A stretch of 64,000 nucleotides of DNA from Terriglobia bacterium (GTDB lineage Bacteria; Acidobacteriota; Terriglobia; 20CM-2-55-15). This document shows, in pieces, positions 3,594 through 63,652 of the stretch. The notes below the pieces were generated by a model. It did no database searches, was not told where the DNA came from, and was given only the letters and a program-made list of their open reading frames with translations. The DNA lies in contig CBDAPB010000032.1 of assembly GCA_965198265.1 (NCBI GenBank), positions 194,557 to 258,556 on the forward strand, in the 5' to 3' direction. Each line of letters starts with the position of its first letter. Position 1 is the stretch's first letter. The translations under genes were made by a program, and so were the position numbers.

Positions 3594-3676
3594 GTGGTCA
3601 GTGGTCAGTGGTCAGTGGCCAGCAAATCGCCGCATCAACTTCCGATTCTGACCACTGGCCACTGGTCACTGGCCAC
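3594..3676. repeat. Heptamer-repeat palindromic element: (GTGGTCA)3-GTGGCCAG / 25-nt spacer / (CTGACCA, CTGGCCA) arm
   Basis: Inverted arms of tandem 7-mers that exactly fill the fliJ-fliI junction. The right arm encodes the last 3 codons and stop of fliI. Confidence 0.85.
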
Positions 3677-14262: not shown

Positions 14263-14400
14263 TCCGCGTAAGAAAGCCACGGATTACACAGGTTACACGG
14301 ATAGGACAGAATTAACTGGTCATGCTGTCCGAAAGACCTCTCCTAATCTGCTAAATCCGTGCAATCCGTGGCTGAATTCGTCCGTGCAGTCCGTGACTAA
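14263..14400. repeat. Cluster of short dispersed repeats (CACGGATT / AAATCCGTG / GAATTCGTCCGTGCA units) related to 28690-28750
   Basis: GAATTCGTCCGTGCA and GCTAAATCCGT recur in inverted orientation at 28697-28745. Confidence 0.7.
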
Positions 14401-15688: not shown

Positions 15689-15780
15689 GTAATCAGTCAA
15701 AAGTAGTCAGTGGTCAGTTGAAGAAGGAGCGGAAAGAGGCGGGTCGCGGCTGGCAACTGACTACTGGCTACTGACTATTC
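15689..15780. repeat. Heptamer-repeat palindromic element (GTAATCA/GTAGTCA/GTGGTCA arm; AACTGACTACTGGCTACTGACTA arm)
   Basis: Lies between the VWA gene start and the ferredoxin stop. Confidence 0.85.
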
Positions 15781-15781
15781 T

Positions 15782-16197
15782 TCAGTGACTTTCCCGTGCC
15801 GCGTTACGGTTCCAATCCGGGATGTAAACAACGATATCCACGGACCCGTCGGCGACGGCCTGGCAGCTGAGGCGGCTGTCGGGGGTGAGGCCCGGCGCGT
15901 TGTAGAGCTGGTCTTCTTCGGCGTCGCTCATCTCGGAGAGCGTGTCTCCGCCTTCCTGAACGACGCAATGGCAGGTTGAGCAGGCGCAGACGCCGCCGCA
16001 GGCGTGATCGATCTCGATGCCGTTGGCCAGGGCAACATCCAGGATGCTGCCCGGCAGGCCGGTGTCGCCGAGGGGGAGTTTGTCGGGGTCGACCTCGACC
16101 GTCACGTTCATCGGAAGGAATGTGACGGTGAACTTCTCGGTTGCCAAGTGCACCGAGGCAAGCTCATCAAAGTATGGATTTCGTCCGCCCATTCGAA
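15782..16197 (-). CDS. [2Fe-2S] ferredoxin, adrenodoxin/Fdx type
   Basis: CGGVCACSTCHC...C cysteine pattern with Fdx-like alignment. Start uncertain (16116-16197). Confidence 0.8.
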
Positions 16198-17421: not shown

Positions 17422-17694
17422 AGCAGCCAGTGGCAGAAGTCTGATGGTTCGCGCGCACGGGTCTTGCGAGGCGGAGACGAGGCGGGAGGAGGAACTGATG
17501 CGGTTTCATCATGACGACGAGCAACAAAGTATCCGGCCGCAATCCCCGTGCGCCCGAAGGGTTACGGCGGCGTCACACCATCTGCGTTGTTCCCGCGCCT
17601 CAACGATGTACCAGCATCGCCGTCGGCGCGGCGCCTAGCATCTGGCGCAACGCCGCCGTAACGCGAGCCATCAGACTTCTGCCACGGGCTGCTA
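17422..17694 (+). repeat. Stem-bounded conserved element, copy 1: a 32-bp inverted repeat (2 mismatches) enclosing a core of about 210 nt with a Shine-Dalgarno-preceded mini-ORF (MRFHHDDEQQ...)
   Basis: 17422-17453 is reverse-complementary to 17663-17694. The core is about 80% identical to the reverse complement of 59310-59534. GGAGGAGG lies 5 nt before the ATG at 17498. Confidence 0.8.
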
Positions 17695-18204
17695 GCGCAA
17701 CGCCTCGAGCTCACTGAAGATCGTCAGCATCGCCGGCCGCTCTCCCGCACTCATTCCGACAAACTGCCATCGGATCTTGCCTTCCCTATCGATGATGAAT
17801 GCGGACGGCCGCGCGATTCCTTCCTGCGGATGGAGGACATCGTAGGCGCGGATATGGTTTCGGTAGGAGTCCGACAGCACGGGGTACGTCAACTTGAGTT
17901 CCCGAACGGTCTGTCGGGCGGTTTCCTGCGGGTCTGCGCTGAGCGCGATCAACTCCGCGTCGAGTTCCTTGATCTTGTCGTAGTTCGCTTGCAGCTCACC
18001 GAGCTGCTCTTGACAGAACGGTCAAGTGTGCATCCGGTAGAAGATTACCAGAACGTTCTTCTCACCCTTGAAATACTCCAGGTTGACCGACGTACCCTGT
18101 ACGGCCATGCCCGTGATGCCCGGCGCCTCGCGTTCCTGGGCGGCCGCCGGCAACGCGGCAGCCAGGGCGAGGACGAGCACCATTGTGATTCGTAAGATTT
18201 TCAT
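17692..18204 (-). CDS. Secreted thioredoxin-fold (TlpA/redoxin/AhpC-TSA family) selenoprotein; in-frame UGA (Sec) at 18022-18024; redox motif U-P-F-C
   Basis: The ORF track splits this into 18022-18204 (signal peptide ... VLVIFYRMHT) and 17692-17952. These join in frame through a TGA, giving HT-U-PFCQEQLGELQANYDKIKELDAELIALSADP..., where U occupies the first position of the CxxC motif. A SECIS-like hairpin follows the UGA. Confidence 0.75.
17991..18007 (-). promoter_or_regulatory. bSECIS-like stem-loop (GCAGCUC-GGU-GAGCUGC) 14 nt downstream of the UGA
   Basis: A 7-bp stem (or a 6-bp stem with CGGUG loop) containing G-U in the apical loop, about 23 nt from the UGA. Confidence 0.55.
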
Positions 18205-19729: not shown

Positions 19730-19738
19730 GCGTCCCCT

Positions 19739-19774
19739 AACTGACTACTGACTACCGACTACTGACTACTATCC
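19739..19774. repeat. Heptamer-repeat element, half copy: (TGACTAC)5
   Basis: In the divergent pgeF/acpS promoter region, ending 2 nt before the acpS ATG. Confidence 0.8.
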
Positions 19775-26615: not shown

Positions 26616-26784
26616 TTGAGTAGTCAGTAGCCAGTAGTCGGTAGTCAGTTGGCGGACGCTCAGCAGCCATTGTGGCCCGAACCGCCACGACAAGCAAAAC
26701 CGACAGGTGACAAGCCAGTCAGTGAAACGCGGAAACGTAACTGACTACCGACTACTGACTACTGACTACTGACTACTGACTACT
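26613..26784. repeat. Heptamer-repeat palindromic element with an 85-nt core (arms (GTAGTCA)n / (TGACTAC)7)
   Basis: Fills the entire SDR-HDAC-like intergenic space. Its core is related to the 35241-35374 copy. Confidence 0.9.
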
Positions 26785-27722
26785 TGTTCTCCCATGAAAA
26801 TCGTTTACTCCCCGATTACTTCCTCAACTTCGGAGACGCCCATGTCTTTCCGATCGAGAAGTATCGTCTCGTCTACGAGGAGATTCGAGCGTTTGTCGAT
26901 GACGACGACTTTGTAACCCCCAATCCCGCGACCGACGAAGACATCCTCACCGTCCATGACTTCAACTACCTGCAGAAGCTGAAGACGGGCATGATGTCCG
27001 AGGGCGAGCTCAGGGTCGCAGAGGTCCCGTTTTCACCCGCACTCGTGGACGCTTTCTGGCTCGCCACGGGCGGCACGCTTCTCGCTGGAGAGCTTGCTTG
27101 CGAGGAGGGGCGCGCTATGAACCTGACCGGAGGGTTTCACCATGCCTTTCCCGACCACGCGGAAGGATTCTGTCTGGTCAATGACGTTGCCGTTGCCATC
27201 CGGGTGCTCCAAAAGAAGCGGAGCATCGAGACGGCCATGACCATCGATTGCGACGTCCATCACGGCAACGGCACGGCGTTCATATTCGAACAGGACCCCC
27301 GCGTGACGACGATCTCACTGCATCAGGCTGACAACTACCCGGCCGTCAAGCCACCGAGCGACATCGACGTCCCGCTTCGCGATGGCTGCACCGACCAGGA
27401 GTACGCTCGGGAATTGGAGCGTGCGCTCGCAACCGGATTCGACGATGCCTCCCCGGACCTGGTCTTCTACCTGGCCGGCGCCGATCCCTACCGCCAGGAC
27501 ATGCTCGGGGGGCTGGGCCTGACTATCGACGGGCTGGCGAATCGTGATCGCATGGTTCTGGAAGCGTGCGCAGATCAAGGTGTCGCCTGCGCCGTCGTCC
27601 TCGCGGGCGGCTATGCCCAGAATACAAACGACACGGTCACCATCCACGTCAACACTGTCCGCGTCGCCCGGGAGACCGCGTTACCGTCGACAAACCCTAC
27701 CGGAACGGGTTCCTTGAAATGA
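26784..27722 (+). CDS. Histone deacetylase-family (arginase/deacetylase superfamily) protein, AcuC/HDAC-like
   Basis: GGFHHA, DxDxHHGNG and GGY motifs. The N-terminus is ambiguous (TTG start per ORF track; an ATG MKIVYSP lies in the +1 frame). Confidence 0.85.
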   Translation: MFSHENRLLPDYFLNFGDAHVFPIEKYRLVYEEIRAFVDDDDFVTPNPATDEDILTVHDFNYLQKLKTGMMSEGELRVAEVPFSPALVDAFWLATGGTLLAGELACEEGRAMNLTGGFHHAFPDHAEGFCLVNDVAVAIRVLQKKRSIETAMTIDCDVHHGNGTAFIFEQDPRVTTISLHQADNYPAVKPPSDIDVPLRDGCTDQEYARELERALATGFDDASPDLVFYLAGADPYRQDMLGGLGLTIDGLANRDRMVLEACADQGVACAVVLAGGYAQNTNDTVTIHVNTVRVARETALPSTNPTGTGSLK

Positions 27723-28689: not shown

Positions 28690-28750
28690 GCCCTGGATTG
28701 CACGGACGAATTCGGCTACGGATTTAGCGGATTTAGCGGATTACGAGACG
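28690..28750. repeat. Second copy of the CACGGA / GGATTTAGC repeat cluster (GGATTTAGC x2 tandem)
   Basis: Shares 14-19-nt blocks with 14340-14385 in reverse complement. Confidence 0.7.
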
Positions 28751-35231: not shown

Positions 35232-35240
35232 GGGGGTGAA

Positions 35241-35374
35241 GAAGTAGTCAGTAGTCAGTAGTCAGTAGTCAGTTGCCGGAACGCTCAGCGGCAACTGTGG
35301 CCCGAACGAGTGACGAGTCAACCAATGACAAGCTGAACCCCAACTGACTACTGATTACTGACTACTGACTACTG
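35241..35374. repeat. Heptamer-repeat palindromic element with a 63-nt core (arms (GTAGTCA)4 / (TGACTAC)4)
   Basis: Lies between the mfd start and the hldE-like stop. Its core shares ACGCTCAGC.GC.A.TGTGGCCCGAAC with the 26613 copy. Confidence 0.9.
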
Positions 35375-35866
35375 CGGGTTGTCTCCCGCAAGGCGGGAGA
35401 CAACCCGCTCTATTATTCCCGAAGTGGACTGGCCTTCTACCAGTTCCAGCGCAACAACCTTGCCGCCCCATCCCTCCACCTCGGGCTGACCCACAATCCC
35501 TTCATCCAGCCAATCGGCGCCCTTCACGAGCACGTCGGGACGGATTTCGAGAATTGTCGCGAGCGGTGTGTCTTCCTCGAAAATATACACAAAATCAACC
35601 ATTTCGAGCGCGGCGAGGATCTCTTCGCGCTCCCGCTCGTCGAAGATGGGGCGTTTGTCGCCCTTCAGACGACTGACCGATTCGTCGCCGTTGATCGCGA
35701 CGATCAGCACATCGCCTAGCGCTCTGGCTCGCCGGAACAGGTCGATGTGGCCGGCATGCAGAAGGTCGAAGCAGCCGTTCGTCAGGACGACGCGCTTGCC
35801 CTCGGCCTGCAACCGGCGAACACGCTGCACAAGGATGTCAATTGTCTCGGTTTTGGACGTGGACAT
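35369..35866 (-). CDS. D-glycero-beta-D-manno-heptose 1-phosphate adenylyltransferase-like cytidylyltransferase (RfaE domain II / HldE C-terminus)
   Basis: VLTNGCFDLLHAGH motif. The C-terminal 11 codons are encoded by a perfect hairpin (35376-35406). Confidence 0.85.
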   Translation of the reverse strand: MSTSKTETIDILVQRVRRLQAEGKRVVLTNGCFDLLHAGHIDLFRRARALGDVLIVAINGDESVSRLKGDKRPIFDEREREEILAALEMVDFVYIFEEDTPLATILEIRPDVLVKGADWLDEGIVGQPEVEGWGGKVVALELVEGQSTSGIIERVVSRLAGDNPQ

Positions 35867-59279: not shown

Positions 59280-59564
59280 CTAGTGGCCTGTAACGGAGAT
59301 ATCGGTACCAGCGTTGCGGTGGAACGGCACCGGATTCTAGGAGCCGACGACGAGGTAATGCTCCTACATTGCGAGGAGGAGCGACAACGAAGACGGTGCC
59401 GTTCCGCCGCAACCCTCCGGGCCGATGGGGGTTGCCGTCGATCTCTTTGTCGTTCGTCGTCATGATGAAACCGCATCAATCGCGGCGAAGTCCTCCTCTC
59501 TCCTCGACCTCGACTGGCAAGACCCATCGGCGATGGTGCCGATATCTCCGTTACAGGCCACTAG
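59280..59564 (-). repeat. Stem-bounded conserved element, copy 2 (opposite orientation): a 30-bp inverted repeat (1 mismatch) enclosing the homologous core; the right arm ends 1 nt before the ABC-F ATG
   Basis: 59280-59309 is reverse-complementary to 59535-59564. The mini-ORF MRFHHDDERQ... lies on the minus strand from 59476. Confidence 0.8.
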
Positions 59565-61994: not shown

Positions 61995-62057
61995 TAGGTG
62001 CGCTCTATGAGCGCACATCGTTTCGGCTCGAAGAATGTGCGGTCATAGACCGCACCT
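61995..62057. repeat. REP/BIME-like double palindrome (two inverted copies of GTAGGTGCGCTCTATGAGCGCACAT) abutting the IS left end
   Basis: Hairpin 1 (61995-62021) and hairpin 2 (62034-62057) are reverse complements of each other with compensatory changes. Confidence 0.7.
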
Positions 62058-62107
62058 ACACCACCCTGGAGATCCGCATCAGAAAAACCCCCTCGAGAAA
62101 ATGCGGA

Positions 62108-63652
62108 CTAGGAGTCTGCGCGGCAGAAGGACCGGAATTGGGCGGATAGAGATCGAAGATAGGACATGTCACGAACATATCGAACCTATATCCCAGAACA
62201 GAGCCTGCTGCTGCCGCCGTCGCTGAGAGATTGGTTGGCCGAAGATCACCTGTCGTACTTCATATCGGACACGGTGGACGCCATGGATTTGAGCGCGTTT
62301 GAGCAGCGGTATGGAACGGACGGACCGGGCAATCAAGCGTACGATCCGCGGATGATGGTGAAGGTGTTGATCTACGGGTACGCGACCGGGGTGTTCTCGT
62401 CGCGGAAGATCGCGGCGAAGTTGACCGACGACGTGGCGTTCCGGATGTTGGGAGCGGAGAACTTTCCGGCGCACCGTACGATCTCGGATTTTCGCAAACT
62501 GCATCTTGAGGAGTTCGGGAACCTGTTTGTGCAAGTGGTGATGATGGCGCGGGAAGCGGGACTGGTGAAGATGGGAACCGTGGCGGTGGACGGAACCAAG
62601 ATGCGGGCGAATGCGAGCAAACGCAAAGCGATGAGCTATGAACGGATGAAGAAGCAGGAGACCGAATTGGGCGAACAGATTCGGGATCTGTTGAACCGGG
62701 CTACGGCGACCGATGAGGAAGAAGACCAGCGATACGGCAAGGACCGGCGCGGAGACGAACTGCCCGATGGGTTGTCGACCCGCAAAAAGCGATTGGCCAC
62801 GATCCAGGCAGCAATGAAACGGCTCGAAGAACGTCAGATGGCTGCGGACCAGGAAGCGGGACGGGAACCGGGAGACGACAAACCCGGATGCGGAAAGAAG
62901 CCATTCAAACGCCCCATGGGCGAGCCCAAACCGACGGCCCAGGACAACTTCACAGATCCGGAAAGCCGGATCATGAAAACCTCCACTGAAGGGTTCCAGC
63001 AATGCTACAACGCGCAGGCGGTGGTGGATTCCGAGGCCCGGATCATCGTAGCGACAACGGTGAGTTCCAATGCGTCCGACGCGGGACAGTTGGAACCGAC
63101 CCTGGATGCGTTGAACAACAACCTGGGAGAGCATCCCGAACGTGTACTGGCCGATGCGGGATATCGATCCGAGTCGAATCTAGGGATGTTGGAACAACGT
63201 CAGATTGACGGGTATGTTGCCATGGGTCGCGAGAAGAATCTGGCCGATGTTCCACTCCCACCCAAAGACACTGCTGTTGGCCGGATGATGAGAAAGATGA
63301 AAACCAAGCGTGGGCGCGACCGCTACCGGGCCAGAAAGCACATTGGCGAGCCGCCCTTCGGGTGGATCAAGTCGGTGCTCGGATTCCGACAGTTCAGTCT
63401 ACGCGGTTTGGACAAAGTGACCGGTGAGTGGAACCTGCTCACTCTGGCGGTGAACTTACGGCGGATGAACGGGATGATCGAATGGGCATAATCCGGAAAA
63501 CCGGAACCCAGCAGACCCGATACACGGCCAATTACTGGTATCCGTACAGCTCTGAACTCCTCGTATCGGAAGAATCGATGGGTTCTCCTCCGAAGACCCT
63601 CTCAAATCCCAATAAATTCGAGTTCTTCGCGCTCTGCCGCGCAGACTCCTAG
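62108..63652 (+). mobile_element. IS1182-family insertion sequence (about 1.55 kb) with 20-bp terminal inverted repeats CTAGGAGTCTGCGCGGCAGA
   Basis: The left inverted repeat at 62108-62127 is perfectly reverse-complementary to 63633-63652. Contains a single DDE transposase. GC content is lower than the host. Confidence 0.85.
62166..63491 (+). CDS. IS1182-family DDE transposase
   Basis: 441 aa, N-terminal InsH-like domain, DDE region (DGTKMRAN...DAGY). Confidence 0.9.
   Translation: MSRTYRTYIPEQSLLLPPSLRDWLAEDHLSYFISDTVDAMDLSAFEQRYGTDGPGNQAYDPRMMVKVLIYGYATGVFSSRKIAAKLTDDVAFRMLGAENFPAHRTISDFRKLHLEEFGNLFVQVVMMAREAGLVKMGTVAVDGTKMRANASKRKAMSYERMKKQETELGEQIRDLLNRATATDEEEDQRYGKDRRGDELPDGLSTRKKRLATIQAAMKRLEERQMAADQEAGREPGDDKPGCGKKPFKRPMGEPKPTAQDNFTDPESRIMKTSTEGFQQCYNAQAVVDSEARIIVATTVSSNASDAGQLEPTLDALNNNLGEHPERVLADAGYRSESNLGMLEQRQIDGYVAMGREKNLADVPLPPKDTAVGRMMRKMKTKRGRDRYRARKHIGEPPFGWIKSVLGFRQFSLRGLDKVTGEWNLLTLAVNLRRMNGMIEWA

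Follow-up and report, generated by a model that had tools for sequence, protein, structure and literature searches.

A non-coding, probably MITE-type family with a folded core and divergent arms at CTAG sites in Acidobacteriota

The two related elements in the 64,000-nucleotide stretch of DNA analysed here (the window) are, with a probability of about 0.8, copies of a non-coding MITE family of Acidobacteriota that is also present in sediment metagenomes. MITEs themselves are a known kind of element, and this family is a new one. The copies are small, contain no transposase gene, end in terminal inverted repeats (TIRs), are bounded by target-site duplications, and are dispersed and polymorphic for presence and absence. 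Published criteria for MITEs comprise size, TIRs, target-site duplications, a transposase acting in trans and stable hairpin transcripts (PMC11602168, PMC10969869), with a size of 50–800 bp in prokaryotes (PMC11602168). TIRs of no less than 10–15 bp and target-site duplications of 2–10 bp are also expected of such elements, and the present copies conform to both. We observed dispersal of the copies, arms that are fixed within each subfamily, flanking repeats, presence and absence at an orthologous position, copies that are nested or interrupted, and a lack of coding capacity. In the whole account that we favour, to which we assign a probability of 0.78, stem and core would amplify together as one unit of about 230–315 bp with TIRs of about 31–34 bp, inserting at the rare palindrome C-TA-G, or at C-TNA-G in one subfamily (hyphens set off the duplicated bases), and thereby duplicating 2 or 3 bp. 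Mobilisation would be provided in trans by DDE transposases of the IS5/IS1182 (PIF-Harbinger-related) superfamily, presumably through a cut-and-paste mechanism, and inserted copies may act on neighbouring genes, for example as hairpins in read-through transcripts.

A preliminary description of the window had reported two elements of about 275 bp, and we located both, each closed by arms that are 94% complementary (Table 1). Its estimate of roughly 80% identity between the cores was borne out: copy 1, on the plus strand, and copy 2, on the minus strand, have a mean column identity of 79%, and the sequence blocks singled out at the time are identical. The 25-mer TGATGCGGTTTCATCATGACGACGA, which surrounds the ‘ATG’ of the element, occurs at only two sites in the window with up to three mismatches allowed (0 expected), and a search of the window with the family profile returned no third copy. 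Copy 2 is distinguished by a private 10-nt insert, CTTCGCCGCG. The stems had been said to share almost no sequence while each remained self-complementary. They do differ and each does pair with itself, but they are not wholly unrelated, because a gapless alignment of the arms of the two copies brings out a common terminal TAG and a common set of conserved positions (..CC.GT..C..A..T).

Table 1. Parts of the two window copies and a nearby insertion sequence (positions are those of the window; P1, closing stem; P2 and P3, internal hairpins)
Feature	Position	Strand	Basis or remark
Copy 1, inverted arms	17422-17453/17662-17693		32 nt, 94% complementary; window repeat scan
Copy 2, inverted arms	59280-59313/59531-59564		34 nt, 94% complementary; window repeat scan
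MITE copy 1, subfamily B, P3 module i, terminal G to terminal C	17423..17692	+	nhmmer E = 6.8e-63 against family profile
Copy 1, 5' arm of terminal inverted repeat (helix P1)	17423..17452	+	
Copy 1, hairpin P2	17453..17553	+	contains purine tract and small hairpin
Copy 1, purine tract GAGGAGGA, within P2	17486-17493	+	
Copy 1, small hairpin GATG..CATC, within P2	17495-17511	+	bears the ‘ATG’ of the preliminary description
Copy 1, hairpin P3, variable apical module	17561..17662	+	internal CTAG at about 17634-17642
Copy 1, 3' arm of terminal inverted repeat (P1)	17663..17692	+	
Copy 1, right-flank CTAG	17692..17695	.	
MITE copy 2, subfamily A, P3 module i, element proper	59283..59561	-	profile match, arms
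Copy 2, 5' arm of terminal inverted repeat (P1)	59532..59561	-	
Copy 2, hairpin P2	59421..59531	-	GAGGAGGA at 59498-59491; small hairpin 59479-59463
Copy 2, hairpin P3	59313..59413	-	
Copy 2, 3' arm of terminal inverted repeat (P1)	59283..59312	-	
CTAG at one edge of copy 2	59280..59283	.	putative TA duplication within C-TA-G
CTAG at other edge of copy 2	59561..59564	.	1 nt upstream of ABC-F start codon (59566)
IS1182-family IS, CTAG-flanked (transposase 62166-63491)	62108..63652	+	NCBIfam 372 bits; candidate relative of mobilising enzyme

The immediate surroundings of the two copies differ. Copy 2 has CTAG at both flanks, while copy 1 has it on the right side only, its left flank being degenerate (GAAG). 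At that right edge the TAG stop of a minus-strand AhpC/TSA redoxin gene occupies 17694-17692 and its G is the last base of copy 1; the stop codon of the gene is thus made up of the duplicated TA and the terminal base of the element. Copy 2 is antisense to both of its neighbouring genes, and the two window copies are oppositely related to neighbouring transcription. Read by eye, copy 1 also lies just after a G+C stem followed by a run of T at the end of a flagellin gene, at a place where a terminator scan reported no site.

The family extends well beyond the window. Scanning one reference genome per species with a 20-mer from the core gave 25 true matches and one chance match; 22 of the true matches fell in a single Terriglobia MAG (CBDAOY01) and the other 3 in two further Terriglobia MAGs. 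The stem of copy 2 (CTAGTGGCCTGTAACGGAGATATCGGCACCATCG...) recurs with at most two mismatches at about 19 unrelated loci, which define subfamily A, and that of copy 1 (CTAGCAGCCCGTGGCAGAAGTCTGATGGTTCGCG...) recurs at about five, which define subfamily B; within both subfamilies the arms are identical or nearly so from one unrelated locus to another, and termini of the A, B or F type include GTGGCCTGTAAC and GCAGCCCGTGGC. Since the window happens to hold one member each of A and B, its two stems look unrelated even though each is self-complementary. The earlier impression that every copy has a stem of its own is therefore contradicted: each subfamily has a fixed terminal inverted repeat, and further copies with such a repeat are exactly what the preliminary description had expected of an ordinary MITE. 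A profile search of the same loci added subfamilies with other stems, namely C/D, E and a nested pair in which F lies within G, and further diverged copies were present in the same CBDAOY01 loci as the 20-mer matches. A degenerate core pattern scanned against metagenomes recovered 42 more loci, most of them with the A+T-rich stem GTACTCCCTTTCATAAATACGGTAACGTTTG, which we call subfamily H; other stems among these loci were those of L029, L057, L068 and the group L036/L041/L063. The family as a whole has at least 14 arm types. Collections of plasmid, phage and viral contigs yielded no copies. Across the family, elements measure 128–316 bp (typically 270–285), with arms of 28–34 bp that are 94–97% complementary in every subfamily and a P3 apical region that occurs as alternative modules, i and ii, or is reduced by deletions.

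We then turned to the sequences that flank the copies. Of 24 Terriglobia copies of types A–E, 17 are bounded by CTA before the element and TAG after it, a pattern consistent with duplication of TA within CTAG and equally readable as a 4-bp duplication of CTAG. Among 22 distinct H-type loci, perfect 3-bp direct repeats (TTA, TAA, TGA) flank the element in 11 and repeats with one mismatch in 10, with inverted repeats in none; a C precedes the repeat in 73% and a G follows it in 73%. Together these patterns point to C-TA-G or C-TNA-G as the target. CTAG itself is strongly depleted in the window, which contains 37 occurrences against 228 expected.

Presence and absence at one orthologous position could be compared directly. 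Members of the ABC-F protein cluster led to three loci in related genomes (L069–L071) in which the spacer between the S41-peptidase and ABC-F genes is about 105 bp long, compared with 383 bp in the window. In the alignment, the whole 285-bp unit is missing from these loci together with both arms, and the break points lie no more than 2 nt from the arms; upstream of the ABC-F gene, both the window and L018 carry the element, and P3 modules i and ii are both met with at this site. At the one orthologous empty site the relatives have diverged and show ATAC where CTAG would be expected, so that whether subfamily A duplicates TA or CTAG can be read only indirectly.

Some copies are nested, interrupted or shortened. 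One copy is nested in another at an internal CTAG (L023), an IS256-like IS with an 8-bp duplication interrupts the arm of a B copy, and a 128-bp copy that has lost P2 keeps its TAA/TAA flanks. What appears to be the same P3 deletion, joining GGCGGAACG to CTGGTACC, is found at three different loci (L009, L013, L017). No ORF runs across any of 32 copies, several of which adjoin the stop codon of a neighbouring gene through CTAG. TAG can be read on either strand of CTAG, and the first and last bases of the element are G and C, so an insertion into a stop codon regenerates the stop; surviving copies are found between genes, often exactly at gene ends.

We next asked which enzyme might mobilise the family. 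A search of about 500 kb of fetched loci with the A, B and H arms at spacings of 0.6–3.5 kb turned up no autonomous element with matching arms, so the transposase can be named by inference only. Two candidates for a parent were rejected: B arms with a long spacing enclose nothing but an unrelated IS256-like insertion, and unpaired A arms belong to truncated copies. The window carries a CTAG-flanked IS of the IS1182 family (Table 1) whose site is a single CTAG in a relative and which is replaced at that site in CBDAOY01 by a 106-bp miniature with the same ends. Elsewhere, a CTAG-flanked IS5-family IS adjoins an A copy through a shared CTAG (L007), and in a metagenome locus an IS1182-type end adjoins a MITE (L063). 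The CTAG target is therefore common to the MITE and to resident ISs of the IS1182 and IS5 families. Insertion at C-TNA-G with a 3-bp duplication is known for transposons related to IS5/PIF-Harbinger, which show the same ambiguity between TNA and CTNAG (PMC4482050). The nearest likeness to an IS end was that between the B arm GCAGCC--CGTGGCAGAAG and the IS1182 TIR GGAGTCTGCGCGGCAGAAG: aligned by eye with a single 2-nt gap, they agree at 14 of 17 positions. All IS1182 relatives sampled at 63–78% protein identity keep the TIR GGAGTCTGCGCGGCAGA, and none of them is A- or B-like. Given a TIR that is nearly invariant down to 63% protein identity, the enzyme acting on B, and even more so on A or H, would be a more distant relative; for the same reason, slow co-drift with that clade fails to explain the wide spread of the MITE arms. 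Judging from the shared CTAG target, the mobilisers are probably IS5/IS1182-type DDE transposases acting in trans, an assignment that we hold with less confidence than that of the elements to MITEs.

An unusual property of the family is the relation between its arms and its core. The copies are predicted to fold far more stably than shuffled sequences (−166.2 kcal/mol and z = −10.7 for copy 1, −160.5 kcal/mol and z = −10.8 for copy 2), forming a three-way junction in which a long closing stem, P1, is joined to internal hairpins P2 and P3. To an alignment of 24 representatives from at least 10 subfamilies, in which copies within subfamilies are closely related, RNAalifold likewise fitted a three-way junction, with compensatory changes in 49 of 76 pairs. 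In a slightly extended version of this structure 91% of cells are paired, compared with 77% in shuffles and 37–48% when partners are slid, and 61 of 100 pairs have changed on both sides; none of 500 shuffles reached the observed values, which are confounded by relatedness and by the inverted repeats of a transposon. Double changes affect 26 of 28 pairs in P1, where 95% of cells are paired. Pairing in P2 and P3 is 95–97%, and the closing helices of these hairpins show compensatory changes as well. The covarying closing stem that had been proposed earlier thus stands as a description of the family; as evidence for an RNA gene it does not, both strands folding equally well.

Conservation is distributed in the reverse of the usual MITE pattern, the core being better conserved than the arms. 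Identity between subfamilies is 0.43 in the inner arms and 0.55 in the outer 10 bp, and reaches 0.79 in the paired core and 0.62 in the unpaired core. The arms of ten subfamilies nevertheless align without a single indel around the backbone TAG..CC.GT..C..A..T, and two copies (L015, L008) have matching changes in both arms. In H-type hosts, with 52–57% G+C, the arms fall to 36% G+C and the core lies at 64–67%. Conserved blocks outside the helices comprise GGG(G/T)CTTG, CAAAGAGATCG and GCCCGAAGGGTT. The apical regions of P2 and P3 are also complementary to each other: the pairings tested (GAGGAG/CTCCTC, GACGACGA/TCGTCGTC and loop with loop) are 73–90% paired, with clear covariation solely between the apical hairpin loops (CAGGGA/TCCCTG, CTGTAG/CTACAG), which may touch each other or may be what is left of an ancient inverted duplication. 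These data show that the arm sequence turns over while the two ends are kept paired or identical, and the compensatory changes in arms and inner helices are not what the simple decay of a selfish repeat predicts. Neutral or DNA-level routes may also lead to matched arms, among them selection for two identical transposase sites, template-switch correction of quasi-palindromes and founder effects in subfamilies.

Several other explanations deserve weighing against the MITE account. The two window stems, different in sequence and each self-complementary, had first suggested a small element consisting of just the core, which would enter the loops of palindromes already present in the host, as IS1397 and ISKpn1 do at REP units, so that the stems would be host sequence. 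Nothing beyond that first impression speaks for the idea, and it has practically no probability left: the same A and B stems recur at unrelated loci, the target duplications lie outside the arms, and the orthologous empty site has neither arm, which refutes insertion into a palindrome that was already there. Nor do we give any real credence to the proposal that the core encodes a small protein, starting from the Shine-Dalgarno-like GGAGGAGG and an ATG. The arrangement GAGGAGGA-N4-GATG is indeed kept in most subfamilies, but the ATG belongs to a small hairpin whose stem, GATG/CATC, is invariant, and the frame that follows the ATG is anything but constant. It runs for 5 codons in C/D, 1–2 in L029 and L054 and 8 in L014, for 36, 46, 54, 60 or more elsewhere, and in many A and H copies it does not close; A and H are set in different frames by a 1-nt indel, and frames vary within H as well. 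Variation has no clear codon periodicity, which is weak evidence in such short blocks, and the copy 2 product found no homologue among 5.8 billion proteins, also when considered as the N-terminus of a lost transposase. The mini-ORF, which the preliminary description had taken to be conserved, is incidental. Somewhat less remote, though still very improbable, is the view that the copies are paralogous genes for a structured non-coding RNA with a covarying closing stem. Strong predicted folds, covariation and some conserved unpaired blocks would suit such genes. Against them, Rfam 15 gave nothing at the gathering score in the window and noise alone at E values up to 10 for both copies, no promoter-like sites were predicted, and the copies have no consistent orientation. 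The consensus fold scores −101 on the bottom strand and −90 on the top, and the bottom strand has the better minimum free energy in 35 of 49 copies; overall the folds of the two strands are of equal quality and give no sign of a strand-specific RNA, and the excess of G-U over A-C follows whichever strand is folded, which makes that test of strand uninformative. Identical copies at unrelated loci, target duplications and an empty orthologous site likewise count against a set of RNA genes.

A reading of more weight, although we regard it as doubtful, is that of a mobile unit that needs a folded single strand, be it a DNA hairpin or cruciform or an RNA, and whose core is recognised by mobilising or host machinery or else is functional cargo. 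The 31-bp stem would then need only to pair and to keep its length, and its sequence would drift by compensatory changes. We are equally tentative about the corresponding proposal for the core, in which the three-way junction of about 210 nt would be a selected folded module, either a recognition determinant with the 31-bp stem as a length-constrained clamp or an RNA or DNA cargo, carried between Acidobacteriota lineages on interchangeable stems. The both-side changes in P1 and the near-complete pairing of P2 and P3, a structure that surpasses every shuffle and the slid controls, the gap in conservation between paired core and inner arms that are free of indels, the covarying apical loops, the G+C-rich core between G+C-poor arms, and the matching arm changes within single copies are all as such a reading would have them. 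Yet the folds of the two strands are equal and the wobble excess follows the strand folded, close kinship within subfamilies inflates the covariation counts, and template-switch correction or selection for identical transposase sites could match the arms without any structural role. Derivatives that lack P2 or P3 still bear flanking repeats, and target duplications of 2–3 bp suggest an ordinary DDE mechanism, as the MITE account supposes.

Recognition of the family has a practical use in annotation, since long hairpins at the ends of genes, of which Terriglobia genomes and sediment metagenomes have dozens, are explained by it. The family is also a marker of active transposition of the IS5/IS1182 type at the rare site CTAG and supplies insertion polymorphisms between close strains. 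Some copies overlap a stop codon or leave a single nucleotide before a start codon, so the elements may affect the expression of their neighbours. The family could show how inverted repeats co-evolve and, if a folded single strand is under selection, would be a good system in which to study how non-autonomous elements are recognised. If the folded-core reading were true, this would be a mobile element defined by structure and not by sequence.

Comparison with known systems places the family near several types of small repeat. Like IS1397 and ISKpn1 at REP units, it presents an element between complementary arms; in the present family, however, the arms move together with the element and the empty site lacks them, so that it neither belongs to that type nor works in its manner. 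ERIC/IRU repeats are intergenic imperfect palindromes in which internal modules are inserted or deleted at fixed positions. To our knowledge they have no known transposase, and we know of no clear target duplication for ERIC. The apical modules i and ii of P3 and its deletions recall this modular structure, but the sequences are not similar. Correia elements (CREE/NEMIS) of Neisseria are MITEs of about 100–155 bp with inverted repeats of about 26 bp, a TA duplication and arm subtypes, and they are co-transcribed with their neighbours as hairpins that RNase III cleaves; we know of no transposase identified for them. The present family is likewise TA-flanked, intergenic, hairpin-forming and so far without a parent. 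It differs in coming from Acidobacteriota and sediment metagenomes, in being twice as long, in its three-way junction and in its far more divergent arm subtypes, and it has no sequence relationship to Correia elements.

With respect to target site, the C-TA-G flanks of subfamilies A–E fit MITEs of the IS630/Tc1-mariner type (Stowaway-like) exactly, IS630 targeting CTAG and duplicating TA. Subfamily H differs in its 3-bp TNA duplications, which enzymes of the IS630 type do not make, as far as we know, and among the fetched loci we saw no gene of the IS630 family. The Tourist-like MITEs associated with IS5/PIF-Harbinger (PHIS), including C-TNA-G groups such as the eukaryotic ‘NuwaII’, are likewise short and non-coding, have TIRs and duplicate 3 bp of TNA with a C before and a G after (PMC4482050). 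Compared with these, the present family is without a known parent with matching ends in the fetched loci, the duplication in its Terriglobia subfamilies appears to be of 2 bp (TA within CTAG), and it has a core that is common to subfamilies whose arms are almost unrelated.

Comparison of one locus across three genomes revealed three states of an IS1182-family insertion sequence (IS). The window carries the full IS, the Terriglobia genome CBDAOY01 (fetched locus L018) carries at the same site a 106-bp miniature with identical ends, and the site is empty, with a single CTAG, in a related genome (L069). Taken together, the full IS, the miniature and the empty site at one locus look like an IS-to-MITE reduction. 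The terminal inverted repeat of this IS, GGAGTCTGCGCGGCAGA, is kept in relatives as far as 63% protein identity. Across the whole window CTAG is strongly depleted (37 observed vs 228 expected, ratio 0.16); TTAA and TATA are likewise low, and TCGA and GATC are two- to threefold enriched.

Coordinates of mobile elements, repeats and the redoxin gene (L-numbers, fetched loci)
Feature	Window	Other loci
IS1182-family IS, CTAG on flanks	62108-63652	
106-bp miniature		L018:4471-4586
Empty site		L069:4870-4885
MITE at ABC-F site	59283-59561	L018:7121-7391
IS5-family IS (NF033581)		L007:3667-4997
IS256-like IS		L012:5217-6645
AhpC/TSA-type redoxin gene parts (- strand)	17692-17952; 18022-18204	
~70-bp palindromic repeat	61995-62062	L002:370-440; L004, right of MITE; L006:2890-2960; L013
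54-nt inverted pair	14339-14392 / 28695-28748	
7-nt-unit hairpin repeats	26618-26785; 35237-35375	
Partial 7-nt-unit arrays	1258-1285; 3594-3675; 15696-15791; 19730-19771	

The MITE at the ABC-F site exists in two versions at an orthologous insertion site. The window copy has module i of the second internal hairpin, P3, together with a 10-nt insert; the CBDAOY01 copy has module ii, and one of its flanks lacks TA. Either one copy may have been converted by another, or the site may have been hit twice, independently.

Other ISs adjoin or interrupt MITE copies. An IS5-family IS (terminal inverted repeat CAGGCTGCTGAAAAACT), flanked by CTAG, is the immediate neighbour of an A-type MITE, with one CTAG common to both, and a B-type copy has its 3' arm interrupted by an IS256-like IS, whose insertion is accompanied by duplication of 8 bp (CAGACTTC). 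The transposase frame of the latter is broken in the record, and two further fetched loci (L005, L019) represent the same locus. Adjoining window copy 1, an AhpC/TSA-type redoxin gene seems broken in two, with the signal peptide on one piece and the C-terminal region on the other; the gene may be frameshifted or a pseudogene, or the assembly may be wrong here.

Further dispersed repeats were observed alongside these elements. A palindromic repeat of ~70 bp, GTAGGTGCGCTCTATGAGCGCAC...GTGCGGTCATAGACCGCACCTAC, is scattered through the Terriglobia genomes compared; its window copy is missing at the orthologous site in L069. Two 54-nt segments 14 kb apart form an inverted pair with 85% complementarity (TCTCCTAATCTGCTAAATCCGTGCAATCCGTGG...), probably a member of another repeat family. 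Besides the MITE, the window holds a second hairpin-repeat family, in which a ~90-nt core lies between arms built of 7-nt unit arrays, (AGTAGTC)n ... (GACTACT)n; at a metagenome locus (L041), arrays of this 7-mer (AGTAGTC/GACTACT) adjoin a truncated MITE.
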